NCBI GenBank assembly: GCA_964016885.1
Contig: CAXHJY010001124.1
Location: 1 to 38,742, forward strand
Direction: 5' to 3'
DNA length: 38,742 nucleotides
Origin: Eledone cirrhosa
Taxonomy: Eukaryota
Shown: piece after piece, positions 2,604-12,227 of the stretch
How positions within the stretch are numbered: position 1 is the stretch's first letter
How the letters are laid out: every line of letters starts with the position of its first letter
Translations under genes and position numbers: made by a program
Notes under the pieces: model-generated
What the model saw: only the letters and a program-made list of their open reading frames with translations
Databases searched by the model: none
Told to the model about the DNA's origin: nothing

Positions 2604-2895
2604 ATATACGATATTAATAAATGGAAACTATATTTATAAAACCATATTTATTTCATTATACATATTTCAGGGATACCAAATTAAATTATGGTATGCCTTC
2701 ATCAAACAAAATACAATATATAACAGTTTTACAAATAAGCTTTGACGTACCCTTTTAAAATGCGACCATTATTTTTGGAGGCCATCTGGATAGTGAATTG
2801 TTTATATTATTTTATTAATTTGGTATCCCTGAAATATGCATAATGAAATAAATATGGTTTTATAAATATAGTTTCCATTTATTAATATCGTATAT
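2604..2895. repeat. 81-bp inverted repeat (2604-2684 / 2815-2895); the right arm carries the 3' half of the family A hammerhead
   Basis: atatacgatattaataaatggaaactata...ggataccaaattaa is the near-perfect reverse complement of ttaatttggtatccctgaaat...attaatatcgtatat. Confidence 0.9.
2649..2713 (-). ncRNA. Type I minimal hammerhead ribozyme motif, family A (C3U core variant)
   Basis: Minus strand reads tattttgt-TTGATGA-aggcatacca(taatttaatt)tggtatccct-GAAA-tatgta-TA-atgaaata. Helix I has 8 bp, helix II 9 of 10 pairs, and helix III is short and near-palindromic. Confidence 0.7.
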
Positions 2896-3057
2896 CTACT
2901 CCAAATACTTGTCGAGTGCTTTATATCAGTTATAAAAATATTTACTTGCTGTATCCCAACAATTTAAATAGAACTTTTGCATATATATATATATATATAT
3001 ATATATATATATATATATATATATATATATATATATATATATATATATATATATATA

Positions 3058-3981
3058 TATATAAAACTCAGGATGTCTGTCTGAGTGTGTGTGAGTTTGA
3101 ATCCCTAAAACTAGAGAAGCCCCGAACCGACTGTTTTCAAACTTTACACATGTAATACTTATGTTTCAGGGAATGTTCTGAGCAAAAAAAATTCAATTTT
3201 TCAATGCCCTAGGGACCGCATTAGGCGATTTAACGATCTCTCTCTATAATTCTTAGTCTTTCCCTTTTTAGATAGATACATAGATATAACGTTGCGCCCT
3301 TATAATATCTGGCTGTATGTCTGGCTGTCTGCATTACGTCACTTCCCTGAGGATGTCTGTCTGTGTGTGTGTGTGTGTGTGTGTGTGTGTGAGTTTGAAT
3401 CCCTAAAATTCGAGAAGTATCCAACCGATTCTTTTCAAACTTTACATGTGTATTACTTATGTTTTAGGGAGTGTTATGTACATAAAAAAAAATTCAATTT
3501 TTTGATTTTCTAGGGCCCGCATTAGGTAAAAAACTGCGTGTTTTCAAGTTTTTAGGGGTTATTTGAGGCGTTACGTCAGACCGATTTCCTTGAAATTGTA
3601 ACTATGTATTAGTCAGTCTCTTCTTCATACCGTGAGCAAAGAAAATCCAACTTTTTTATGGCCTAGGGCCCGCATTAGGTGAAAAACTTCATTTTTTCAG
3701 CTTTTTATGGCTTTTTGGAGGCGTTACGTCTATCCGCTTTTCCCGAAATTTCAAGGCATATTATGCACATAAAAAAATTAATTTTCTTGATCCCCTAGGG
3801 CCCGCATTAGGTGAAAACCTGCATTTTTCCTGCTTCATCGAGGAAAATCTTAAAGATTATCAGAGTATTCGGTTTATTTTCTTTACATATTGTCCAGGCA
3901 TGCAGTTTTTCCACGATTAGGTCTGTTGGCAGCCCCGTTCCAAAATACCTTCCCCCGTGCAACGCCGGGTACCACTGCTAA
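3058..3981 (+). mobile_element. Non-autonomous Helitron with internal repeats
   Basis: The 5' sequence atataaaactcaggatgtctgtctg matches the copy at 26853. The 3' GC hairpin ccccgtgcaacgccgggt is followed by CTAA (decayed CTAG) and then T. The motif ctagggcccgcattagg recurs at ~3210, 3510, 3663 and 3796, and 3065-3225 is duplicated at ~3348-3527. Confidence 0.7.
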
Positions 3982-4633
3982 TATATATATATATATATAT
4001 ATATATATATATATAGAGAGAGAGAGAGAGAGAGAGAGAGAGAGAGAGAGAGAGAGAGAGAGAGAGAGAGAGAGAGTGCCTGTTTGTTTCGTAACTAGTA
4101 GTTCGACAATAAGAGATCGCTAAGTCCCAGGCTTCCAAAAATAAGTACTGAGGTCGATATAATTGATTAAATACCTTTAAGATGGTGTTGGTGTTACAGC
4201 ATGGCCGCAGTCTACCTGAAACGTAAAAAGAATAAAGGAATAGAAAAATGTGTGTACACACATACATACACGCGGAGGCATGCACTTATTTATATACAGG
4301 ATACATTGCCAGACATACACATCTACTCTCTCTCTCTCTATATATATATATATATATTTATATATTTATATCAAGGGCGGTGCCCCAGCATGGCCTCAGC
4401 CGGATGGCTGAAACAGGTAAAAGAGTAAAAGAGTATATATTTAAAGGTTCAATGAATATATATTTCAAGGTTCAATGAATAAATCAAAGAGTTAGTTTTA
4501 CAATAGATTGGAATGTCTAATTTTGTTAATATTTTGAATTAATATATATATATATATATATATATATATATATATATATATATATATATATATATATATA
4601 TATAGTTATGTAATAAACAACATAAGGCAAGTA

Positions 4634-4693
4634 TTCCATTTACCAGTGGTTTCTTAAAAGCAAAAGATTTTGCTTTCAATCCTCAGAATGAAA
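4634..4693 (-). ncRNA. Type I hammerhead ribozyme, family B, canonical core
   Basis: Minus strand reads tttcatt-CTGAGGA-ttgaaagcaaa(atct)tttgcttttaa-GAAA-ccactgg-TA-aatggaa. Helix I has 7 bp and helix II 11 bp; helix III ACCACTGGT is near-palindromic, with a GUA cleavage triplet. A distal helix I extension pairs 4612-4619 with 4705-4712. Confidence 0.85.
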
Positions 4694-4869
4694 AAATCCT
4701 GGTCTGTTTATTGAATTTGGATTTTAAAAACCATTAAGCTCTGTTACCTACATAGAGCACTCTTTTTTCCTGGACTTTTCCGACGGAATTACTTCATTCA
4801 TTTATATATATATATATATACTTTTCATTTATATATATATATATTCATTCATTTAAATTATTCACTCAT

Positions 4870-5102
4870 TCATTTAAATTATTGACGTATTGTTTTATTG
4901 ATATTTTTTATCTGTTTGTCCCGAATCTTCCTTTATCGATTTTTTATCGTATGGTTGATTGTAGACTTGTTCTATATGTGACGGTATTTTAACGATAGTT
5001 ATAGCTCTGATTCATCTGAATTATTGAGCCCTCTGCCGCTCATTTCGAATCTTGTTTATCGTGAACTCGTGCGCCGATTTTTCGATACTCGATCTTTCTA
5101 AT
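4870..5102. repeat. Dispersed TA-flanked repeat; diverged relative at ~23630-23830
   Basis: tctgtttgtcccgaat...ttttaacgatagttatagctctgattca...gagccctctgcc aligns by eye with tttgtttgacccgaat...ttttaacgtatgttgttgctctagttca...gagcgcttgcc. Confidence 0.55.
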
Positions 5103-9889: not shown

Positions 9890-10186
9890 ATAACCTGCAT
9901 AACAATTACCGCGAACTCGCTGCATAACTATGGAAGCATCTTGTTGAGTCAATCAAAGCCGTACGTTAAAACTATCCACGACGCAGAGCACTCACAACCT
10001 CTAACTGGATTACCTATAGCGATAACTTATTATCCCAAATATATATATATATGTATATATTTAAAGGTTAAACAAGGTTCAATGAATAAATCAATGAATA
10101 AAGTTTTACAATAGGTTAGAAGCACTCCACAAAAATGGTTTTCCGGAGTTATTAATATTAATTCAAAATATTAACAAAAAATTTTT

Positions 10187-10249
10187 TTTTATCTGATGAG
10201 GACGTACTGTTGAAGATAGCTCAGTACCTCTGAAATATGTATAATAAAA
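10187..10249 (+). ncRNA. Type I minimal hammerhead ribozyme, family A-related, canonical core
   Basis: Reads ttttat-CTGATGA(10193-10199)-ggacgtactg(ttgaagatagct)cagtacctct-GAAA-tatgta-TA-ataaaa. Helix II has 9 of 10 pairs. The motif is enclosed by a 24-bp inverted repeat, atattaattcaaaatattaacaaa / tttgttaatattttgaattaatat. Confidence 0.85.
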
Positions 10250-10584
10250 TATACATGATCACACGAATGTCTATATTTGTTAATATTTTGAATTAATATA
10301 TATATATATATATATATAAATGGAAAAAATGAAACGAAACTTCACTTCTCACTCCTAGCACGGCTGATACTTAAATGTAAGCACGTATACGTACATACAT
10401 ATATGTATACAGACGTATAGTAGTATGTATATATACATACATGTATATATATACATACATATGTACGTATGGGTCCACCGAACATTCACCACAATGCTCG
10501 GTTTGTTTATAAACAAACAGCCCGAATTAAGCCGTACAGTGTTTAGCAACCATCGTTGCCCTTTTGTTCAACACTGACAAAAGA

Positions 10585-10627
10585 ACGATGTACTAGTTTC
10601 AAGCTTATTAGCTATCGTCAGCACCGT
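10585..10627 (-). ncRNA. Type I minimal hammerhead ribozyme, family E
   Basis: Exact reverse complement of the 10914-10956 motif. Confidence 0.88.
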
Positions 10628-10913
10628 ATACCTTTCTGCCAGATGATTGAACGTCTGAAAGTATATACTTTCCTTATGCATATTAACGGCTGAGCAGCCT
10701 AATTTGCATATCGAGTGAGTTAGTCAGCCGGGCGCACCGAAAACGATAAATAGAAAAAATGAAACGAAACCTCACTTCTCACTCCTAGCACGGCTGATAC
10801 TTAAATGTAAGCACGTATACGTACATACATATATGTATACAGACGTACAGTAGTATGTATATATATACATACATGCACACATATATATATATGTACGTAT
10901 GGCAGAAAGGTAT

Positions 10914-10956
10914 ACGGTGCTGACGATAGCTAATAAGCTTGAAACTAGTACATCGT
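10914..10956 (+). ncRNA. Type I minimal hammerhead ribozyme, family E
   Basis: Reads acggtg-CTGACGA-tagct(aata)agctt-GAAA-ctag-TA-catcgt. Helix I has 6 bp plus a distal extension (ggcagaa / ttttgtc), and helix III is the palindrome ACTAGT. The GUA site predicts cleavage after A10950. Confidence 0.88.
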
Positions 10957-12227
10957 TCTTTTGTCAGTGTTGAACAAAAGGGCAACGATGGTTGCTAAAC
11001 ACTGTACGGCTTAATTCGGGCTGTTTGTTTACAAACAAACCGAGCATTATGGTGAATGTTCGGTGGACCCATACGTACATATATATATATATGTGTGCAT
11101 GTATGTATATATACATACTACTGTACGTCTGTATACATATATGTATGTGCGTATACGTGCTTACATACATATATATCCTTCTTCTCTGGAAGAAATCAGC
11201 TGTGTTCAGACCTGAATAGGGGATGGACTTTGCCAGGTTTAAAAGACATGCTGTATGTTATGAGGGCGCCCCGACGACTTCATCGGGCGTTTCAGGTCCA
11301 TACATACATATGTCCTTGGTTGAGCAGGTCTATGATCAAATGCGTTCTAGCCATGACCATCATGTTTATTATTATTATCTAGGATTACCTTTTCTAATGT
11401 GTCCTGACTTTTTAAAAGAGGATCGGGAGGATATGATTTGAGAGAGATCTGGTTACTGTTTCTTGCAGATCTTCTGGTACTTATCATCAGAGTTGATAGG
11501 TACCAGTCAAATACTAGAGGCAATTAAAACAACTATATCACCCTCCAAAATGTATATAGCTTTGCTCCAAGATTAATAAAATCATCATTTGGTTCAAGTT
11601 CTACTCTGATTGGACAGACTTATGATCAAAAGCATTCCTATCTTTCTTCAGGGATATCTAAGAATACATTATCCAGTGATAGTGAATTTCCGAGTTTGAT
11701 TCTATTGTGTATCATCTTGGATCTTGTGAACTGGGTGGGTAGAAAACAGTGTGGAAGCTCGCCGGGAAGGCTGTATCAGTAATTCATAGGCCCAGCCTTA
11801 TCATATACCGTGTCACAGCTACTCATAAATTAATTTAATAAGTAGTTAGTTCAGCTGAACGCCCAACTGGAACACTCGTCGTTGAAATTGACGAAAGATC
11901 CATCCTTTAATGTGTCCTTTACTTTGTCAATAGGGAGATTTAGCTACTATTTCTATCAAGTCGGGTAACGACGTCCAAGATTCCTTGTTGGTTGATTATT
12001 ATTGGGTTAAATGAGGGTAGTAGGTTGGCATAGTCGTTAGACTGTTGGACAAATGAGTAGCGGTATTTACGTTCGAAGTTCAAATTCCGCCTCTGTTAAC
12101 TTTGCCTTTCCTCTTCCCAAGGTCGATAAATAAAGTATCAGTAAAGAACCGAGGTCGATATATTCGAATTTACCCTTCCCAAAATGTCTGGCCTTGTGTC
12201 TATATAAGAAACCATTATTAGGTTAAA

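Follow-up and report, generated by a model that had tools for sequence, protein, structure and literature searches.

Hammerhead ribozymes of Penelope-like elements (PLEs), Hydra-clade PLEs of octopus and retrozymes of animals are already known. The Hydra clade, described in 2021, includes Hydra-1_Obim from Octopus bimaculoides, and the supplement of that study records one octopus Hydra family with (TA)n targets (PMC8557442), while PLEs make up 6.83% of O. vulgaris (PMC13282606, supplement). Minimal PLE hammerheads have been defined by RNAmotif descriptors in work that also reported the U3-A8 core, motif pairs on opposite strands and single motifs left by truncated PLEs (PMC4209133). A PLE studied in vitro cuts and extends both strands of AT-rich DNA and has two internal start sites of reverse transcription near the 5' end of its RNA, and cleavage by its ribozyme is not required (Frangieh et al., PMC11167929). 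The formation of pseudo-long terminal repeats (pLTRs) and inverted ends, as well as the role of the hammerhead in PLEs, are described as open in PMC8557442 and PMC2377424. Here we analyzed a contig of the octopod Eledone cirrhosa (CAXHJY010001124.1), called the window below and taken whole (38.7 kb), in which a reading of the sequence alone had noticed a cluster of hammerhead motifs at 2604..11166, in short modules bounded by TA repeats. What is new in our findings is how the short copies of these elements are bounded.

The hammerhead motifs in the window are real and mostly do not lie in non-autonomous elements. We consider it likely that the cluster is a nest of eight independent (TA)n insertions, M1 to M8, seven of them pLTR ends and one a retrozyme, whose short ends were left by an enzyme copying only the capped front of its own uncut RNA. 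M3 belongs to a repeat family that we call A and M2 to a family B, and M5, M7 and M8 represent families of their own.

Start sites of the short copies

Within each of the families A, B and M5, the short copies share a single start site particular to that family, often with a non-templated G. This site lies upstream of the predicted ribozyme cut, by about 130 nt in family A, about 90 nt in family B and 30-50 nt in M5 (peak at 41), where it falls inside the loop of helix II. No pile-up of 5' ends was found at the predicted ribozyme cut sites. In family A, the base that would be templated just before the start was missing from 304 copies, of which 28 of 30 inspected ended exactly there; it was kept in 619 copies, of which 18 of 20 inspected were long, with dispersed ends 20 to more than 1,400 nt further.

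A G preceded the start site in 43 of the 100 listed family A copies without the templated base. Since Gs templated by microhomology are possible in this family, only junctions abutting TA provide a clean test. Among 100 listed copies (of 117), 55 had such pure-TA junctions, with an extra G in 13, an added A or T in 2, the templated C in 6 and a continuation of the target in 34; five bases inward of the start, only 2 matches were obtained. The base before the start site of M5 was G in 56 of the 100 copies listed (of 318), a templated T or C in 27 and 8, respectively, and A in 9, and the control position four bases inward gave G in 1 of 100 listed (of 206). Family B showed the G in 27 of 75 copies and in 8 of 9 pure-TA junctions. 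The extra G is absent from long copies and from the TA target, and within the window both M2 and M3 carry it. A further count of 28 out of 31, obtained with a query beginning with G, is biased and was not used. Long T runs were also seen at some M5 5' junctions (L203, L207, L150, L224), as if A had been added repeatedly to the cDNA end.

An extra G at the 5' junction is a recognized trace of the cap in L1 insertions (PMC11702581). By analogy, the family-specific start would be an RNA polymerase II start and the extra G a copied cap. Each family has two fixed 3' ends, the pLTR end and a tail end, which face TA repeats and often occupy one arm each of a head-to-head pair. Following the in vitro work (PMC11167929), reverse transcription may start internally at two sites near the 5' end of the RNA; begun at the pLTR end or the tail end of the upstream repeat and run to the cap, it would give a cDNA of 60-300 nt. 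Such cDNA could be attached to one or both cut DNA ends, and one per end would produce two head-to-head arms, the one short and the other tailed, presumably joined by microhomology. The copies span the predicted cut site, which argues that their templates were not cleaved. In A and B the whole dimer-type ribozyme would lie behind the cap and would need a dimer partner, while in M5 transcription would start in the helix II loop and leave the monomer-type ribozyme incomplete at the RNA 5' end. Matching a start inside the ribozyme, the 3' halves of M5 exceed its 5' halves about 10 to 1 (34,606 versus 3,491 exact copies in a pattern search). M8 may borrow the PLE machinery and be copied from circular or multimeric RNA, and new insertions would reuse and extend TA runs, thus building nests.

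For Hydra-clade PLEs as a group we can extend this only tentatively, with rather more doubt than confidence: the commonest product may be a tail-to-cap "strong-stop" cDNA, solo pLTRs may be primary insertions that record transcription starts, and the ribozyme may stay uncut in the templates, kept off by the need for a dimer (A and B) or by a start inside it (M5), a process that would have filled this octopod genome with on the order of 10^5 hammerhead motifs.

Several observations weigh against the cap-to-tail reading of the nest. The test at the cut sites is weak for M5 and B, whose references are short downstream of the cut, and the samples collected by pattern span the cut by design. Four of ten inspected family A Gs at arm-to-arm junctions can be explained by microhomology with the partner arm, and 4 of the 56 M5 rows with G come from one tandem. 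The 5' ends of M5 are spread over about -50 to -30 rather than placed at a single base. No ORF-linked copy (ORF, open reading frame) of the M1 subfamily, M4 or M6 turned up among the loci examined. Some of the ribozymes may also be inactive, judging from the C3-A8 mismatch in 34 of 100 listed M5 5' halves and from M7, which lacks A9.

Alternatively, the stubs could be self-propagating non-autonomous elements resembling short interspersed nuclear elements (SINEs), transcribed on their own from an internal promoter and moved in trans by the protein of the parent, a reading that comes near the sequence-only one. The promoter of D. virilis Penelope lies inside the pLTR (PMC2377424), M5 stubs outnumber long copies about 10 to 1, and the product of a SINE-like stub would look identical, extra G included. 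Nevertheless, we regard this as unlikely: identity between stubs and the ends of ORF-bearing copies is 97-99%, with no stub-specific structure seen, the M5 stubs lack half the ribozyme, and in family A the long copies retain a conserved block, some 50 nt upstream of the start, which is missing from the stubs. An octamer-like word, which we take to be a possible promoter element, is found upstream of the family A start, at a distance of about 50 nt (L372-L391), and in the M8 unit (10702-10709).

The 5' ends might instead mark sites of reverse-transcriptase stalling or RNA processing, the G being a non-templated addition unrelated to the cap. This would suit the M5 site, which is placed just upstream of two helices and has ends spread over about 20 nt, and T runs were likewise added at some M5 junctions. 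It seems to us a decidedly unlikely explanation, however, as the M5 G drops from 56 to 1 of 100 listed copies within four bases, and the extra-G signature is common to three unrelated families. Moreover, the M5 start site reads T/C-A-G-T, which we take to be initiator-like.

Finally, solo pLTRs might be remnants of full-length elements after recombination or deletion, as proposed for those of rotifers (PMC3846280). Deletions are indeed common in these copies, but they would explain neither why copies share a start base, with an extra G set against pure TA, nor why head-to-head pairs combine a short end with a tail end, and we find this origin highly improbable here.

Families behind the modules

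On the evidence of their protein motifs, by which the clade is assigned, families A, B, M5 and M7 are the pLTR ends of autonomous Hydra-clade PLEs. A pLTR was contiguous with an ORF encoding a reverse transcriptase (RT) and, C-terminally, a GIY-YIG endonuclease in copies of A (L150, L155), B (L259, L260), M5 (L220, L221) and M7 (L100, L102); L150 comprises a pLTR, a tail, a frameshifted RT-endonuclease ORF, a 1.5-kb untranslated region (UTR) and a second family A pLTR. In line with the motif definition of the clade (PMC8557442, section 11), five aligned endonucleases, three of them from A, B and M5, share a CxCX5C linker and CxxC and CxH near the C-terminus, with no CCHH. That of M7 has Hydra-type motifs read from its ORF copies, outside this alignment. 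The RT motifs are DKT and RWR in A and DKT and RWK in B (the N-termini of M5 and M7 lie outside the sequence seen), and Pfam failed to detect the RT in 7 of 8 PLE pieces. By sequence, the M1 subfamily, M4 and M6 are related to A or B, and they likely also represent ends of autonomous Hydra-clade PLEs.

Genome-wide, exact motif copies numbered 6,107 for family A (M3), 3,605 for B (M2) and 1,295 for M8, with 2,664 and 1,017 first-look candidates for M7 and M4. Long copies are a minority: among 30 loci per family, taken in genome order, a same-family endonuclease was present within 1.5 kb upstream at one for A, one for B and four for M5. In long copies of family B, a second, diverged hammerhead-like copy was seen in the 3' UTR (L259:6209-6296; also L257, L258 and L260), 1.1-1.4 kb upstream of the pLTR hammerhead; it could serve as a built-in dimer partner.

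The sequence-only reading had placed the modules in a Penelope-like context with (TA)n targeting and had offered "solo pLTR" as one option, all of which our data support. Its view of them as non-autonomous families mostly did not survive, as RT/GIY-YIG ORFs are attached in other copies of A, B, M5 and M7. Retrozymes encode no protein and have a short tandem organization, and the ORF-linked copies set M2, M3, M5 and M7 apart from them; the retrozyme-like label holds for M8 and falls for most other modules.

M8 is the only true tandem retrozyme among the modules by its sequence organization, and it matches the sequence definition of a non-LTR retrozyme (PMC7229834; 10.64898/2026.07.22.740005). 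Its non-coding unit of 428-490 bp, with a GC content of 37% (below the 45-50% of the retrozyme definition), forms arrays of 2-6 consecutive units, with a complete type I hammerhead in every unit. Units are 98.6% identical within arrays (3 pairs) and 92.1% between them (6 pairs). A contiguous PLE ORF was found in none of 30 unbiased loci; one sense PLE match 1.1 kb upstream and 8 antisense matches near M8 in these loci are pieces of other families. M8 too has two 3' ends, about 60 nt apart, with 26 of 30 rows ending at unit position 253-267 or 320 (some rows share one array), and six head-to-head pairs have one of each (L279, L280, L287, L290, L301, L304; L278 and interrupted pairs were left out). 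Its 5' ends are dispersed and cross unit borders, with a mild cluster at unit positions 355-393, and neither a single start nor an extra G was found in the 30-nt span tested (unit positions 397-427). In the contigs of four runs of unrecorded type, whose depth bears on neither expression nor copy number, 4 of the 43 ribozyme places varied, namely N7, loop II and the two members of a single helix I pair, the double change in helix I being seen in copy L045. The predicted circular fold is 67% paired, in a run without a control. The unit also holds a TA/CA-rich segment (10400-10470, 11070-11160) that is similar to the target of M8 itself and forms a long hairpin when folded.

The PLE fragment at 434..1027 (+) had been proposed as the mobilizer of the modules. 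It comprises a linker zinc finger and the start of a GIY-YIG domain, is cut at both ends and has a frameshift near 790; we assign it to a Neptune-type ORF. Its family has 17,068 candidates, 150 of which were scored. The full ORFs, longer than 1,100 amino acids, have a CX4CxxC linker and CCHH, in agreement with the CX2-5CxxC linker, CCHH and C-terminal GIY-YIG of the Neptune type, a motif-based assignment with which Nematis is also compatible. The Pfam GIY-YIG match is weak (E 0.041), and the closest protein to a full ORF is one from Octopus vulgaris (68%). The family has its own pLTR with a minimal hammerhead, and that pLTR has no match in the window. With a different pLTR and hammerhead, and an endonuclease only 29% identical to that of M5 over 96 amino acids, this element is not the parent of the modules. 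In copy L111:1939-5820 the RT is preceded by a long asparagine-rich insert, a feature also described for rotifer Penelopes, and the first codons of the family ORF fall within its pLTR and tail. A 5' pile-up at +212 in this family was rejected as an artefact of a TA run in the reference.

The hammerhead cluster in the window

The five canonical hammerheads previously listed, at 6321-6386(+), 10187-10249(+), 4634-4693(-), 10914-10956(+) and 10585-10627(-), were confirmed as type I motifs with the core CUGANGA and GAAA, U16.1-H17 and helices I-III, and one descriptor recovered exactly these complete motifs across the window and no others. Two strict descriptors found 3 motifs each in 2600-11200, together the five, against a shuffle mean of 0.01 and at least 3 motifs in 0 of 100 shuffles, which bears out the expected excess over shuffled sequence. 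With one core deviation tolerated the count was still 3 (shuffle mean 0.14); the variant motifs fail this relaxed descriptor and were examined by reading and through their relatives. The three variant and three partial motifs described earlier are likewise there: the hammerheads of M1, M4 and M7 each deviate at one core base, and the other three are 3' halves. All 11 motifs are thus present, but they amount to only eight insertions, four of which are head-to-head arm pairs, one arm being without a further motif. Tiny palindromic helices III had been ascribed to nearly all motifs; the partial motif 6705-6746 instead has a stable 6-bp helix III. As already stated in that reading, descriptor and anchor searches found neither motif nor module beyond 11.2 kb. 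The suggested Rfam check yielded no match at gathering score, the 139 matches obtained at E up to 10 did not include a hammerhead, and its microRNA matches were rejected as microsatellite noise. Isolated motifs, M4 excepted, folded no better than shuffles (z -0.3 to -2.5, 8 sequences). Helix covariation, also suggested, was observed as two-sided changes in helix II in 7 of 15 pairs from 14 related A-type motifs, relatedness being uncorrected.

Relatives clarified the deviant cores; these counts, and those of short/tail pairing, refer to the rows listed. The C3U change of M1 is private, C3 being kept in 12 of 14 rows shown (of 17), while the other two are one copy seen twice with its core lost. 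Private as well is U4C of M4, with U4 kept in 25 of 25 rows, 20 of them canonical. All 24 visible copies of M7 (of 29) lack A9, with U in 23 and G in 1; they are the best matches to the window copy. The full M5 motif has a long helix II, a 6-bp helix III and a U3-A8 core, and its 100 listed 5' halves comprise 64 U3-A8, 34 C3-A8 and 2 U3-G8, N7 being free. Across all loci, 227 distinct descriptor matches include many hammerhead families absent from the window.

M1, of the family A subfamily (2609..2981), consists of a minus arm (2609-2814) with a full hammerhead (2649-2713) and the short end, and a plus arm (2815-2981) with half a hammerhead and a tail of about 95 nt. M2 (4605..4801) joins a minus-strand pLTR (4605-4731), which holds the hammerhead 4634-4693 and begins at the family B 5' site with the extra G at 4732, to a plus-strand tail piece (4733-4801). 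M3 is a family A solo pLTR (6245..6428, +) with the extra G at 6245, the family 5' site at 6246, the hammerhead 6321-6386, a predicted ribozyme cut after 6378 and a short end running into (TA)n. It is followed by the B-related solo pLTR M4 (6460..6597, +; hammerhead 6491-6573) and by M5 (6648..6838), a palindromic pair of 3' half-hammerheads that both begin in the helix II loop, the minus arm having the short end and the plus arm a tail of about 80 nt. The minus arm of M7 (9466..10039) spans the 3' UTR end, the pLTR, the hammerhead 9519-9629 and the short end (9466-9751), and its plus arm (9750-10039) half a hammerhead and the tail. In M6 (10060..10296, +) an inverted tail piece precedes an A-like pLTR with the hammerhead 10187-10249. 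M8, with its unit of about 430 bp (10316..11166), has a hammerhead in both arms: the minus arm (10585-10627) is longer than one unit and has the long end at 10316, and the plus arm (10914-10956) has the short end at 11166. Two stubs accompany these modules, one of the M6 family without a hammerhead (4434..4541; inverted tail and the last ~30 nt of the pLTR) and a tail-only one of the M8 family (7190..7270, -).

The first 11.2 kb hold 35 TA runs and the rest of the window 7. With nine anchors we counted 12 arms in the 8.6-kb cluster and 21 in 16 arbitrary 10-kb regions (8 empty, maximum 5), a background density that extrapolates to a few hundred thousand arms genome-wide. Seven complete motifs in these 160 kb, from five events, were convincing out of 19 raw matches (shuffle mean 2.2), 9 of the 19 coming from one satellite and 3 being doubtful; this small sample suggests that the genome contains on the order of 10^5 complete hammerhead motifs. 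The cluster is not the special locus it had appeared to be, given 21 such arms already in 160 kb of arbitrary genome, and its roughly tenfold local excess over an already high background is best explained by nesting in TA runs. A selected, functional host ribozyme array, for which the 12 arms in 8.6 kb against 21 in 160 kb might speak, is hardly credible in view of the mixed families and strands, the private core mutations in two motifs, the similar but smaller nests in other regions (as many as 5 arms per 10 kb, and 1.7-3.3 other-family arms per 10 kb beside known copies) and the absence of any host gene seen in the window.

Other TA-bounded repeats were noted at 1441-2452 (internal duplication and five 30-bp units, relative in copy L097, hammerhead not found), at 3064-3980 (four internal 65-nt repeats, relatives in L078 and L158) and at 5120-5228 and 7100-7150, which are ends of another repeat family, probably another PLE end, recurring beside modules in many loci. 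Further on lie a satellite in which a 91-bp unit is repeated 16 times at 99% identity (14127-15582) and a compound satellite of 24-, 37- and 61-bp units (18386-19545).

Comparison with known systems

The cluster itself is ordinary transposon nesting, and its wider meaning lies in the extra-G junctions, which would provide base-precise start sites for three families. They would also lend genomic support, from a second clade, to the internal initiation reported in PMC11167929. For the short copies of the autonomous families, they speak against a template that was cleaved or circular, while a circular or multimeric template looks to be the case for M8 in the same genome. In the literature searched, which left out subscription papers and Repbase/Dfam, we found no report of octopus hammerheads, of a cephalopod retrozyme or of a cap-derived G or cap-marked stubs in PLEs.

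Compared with Hydra-clade PLEs as characterized in PMC8557442, the families described here share the C-terminal GIY-YIG, DKT, RWK/RWR, the CxCX5C linker, CxxC and CxH without CCHH, the pLTR hammerhead, (TA)n targets, inverted 5'-truncated arms and an optional tail. They differ in that several families reach thousands to tens of thousands of ends, in tails of 70-150 nt rather than 30-40, in 3' UTRs of 0.7-1.6 kb and in a family-specific 5' start with an extra G. The likeness to Hydra-1_Obim is given here at the level of description.

The ribozymes resemble the minimal and variant PLE hammerheads of Cervera and de la Pena (2014, PMC4209133) in being type I with a long helix II and palindromic helix III, and in occurring mostly as single motifs from truncated PLEs, in close opposite-strand pairs and with a U3-A8 core. 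M5 combines this core with a stable helix III of 6 bp, which that study describes for fungi and protists, and the loss of A9 in M7 is not listed in the parts of PMC4209133 or in section 8 of PMC3088659 that we consulted.

M8 resembles the metazoan non-LTR retrozymes (Cervera and de la Pena 2020, PMC7229834; Li et al. 2026, 10.64898/2026.07.22.740005) as a non-coding tandem unit with one type I hammerhead each, at 37% GC, in monomers to hexamers and coexisting with PLEs. It departs from them in a unit length of 428-490 bp at the long end of the range, in the two-end tail signature of PLEs and in head-to-head inversions, and is known from sequence alone; a parent pLTR for M8 was not found.

With respect to mechanism, the closest system is Poseidon PAc of Anolis (Frangieh et al. 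2024, PMC11167929), where the tail is explained by two adjacent internal start sites of reverse transcription close to the 5' end of the RNA, cutting and extension take place on both DNA strands, and uncleaved RNA serves as template in vitro. In contrast to the work on PAc, our evidence is genomic, comes from a different clade and concerns the opposite end of the short cDNA. An extra G is likewise found at the 5' junctions of full-length L1 insertions (PMC11702581), whereas here it is found on stubs of 60-300 nt and not on full-length copies.

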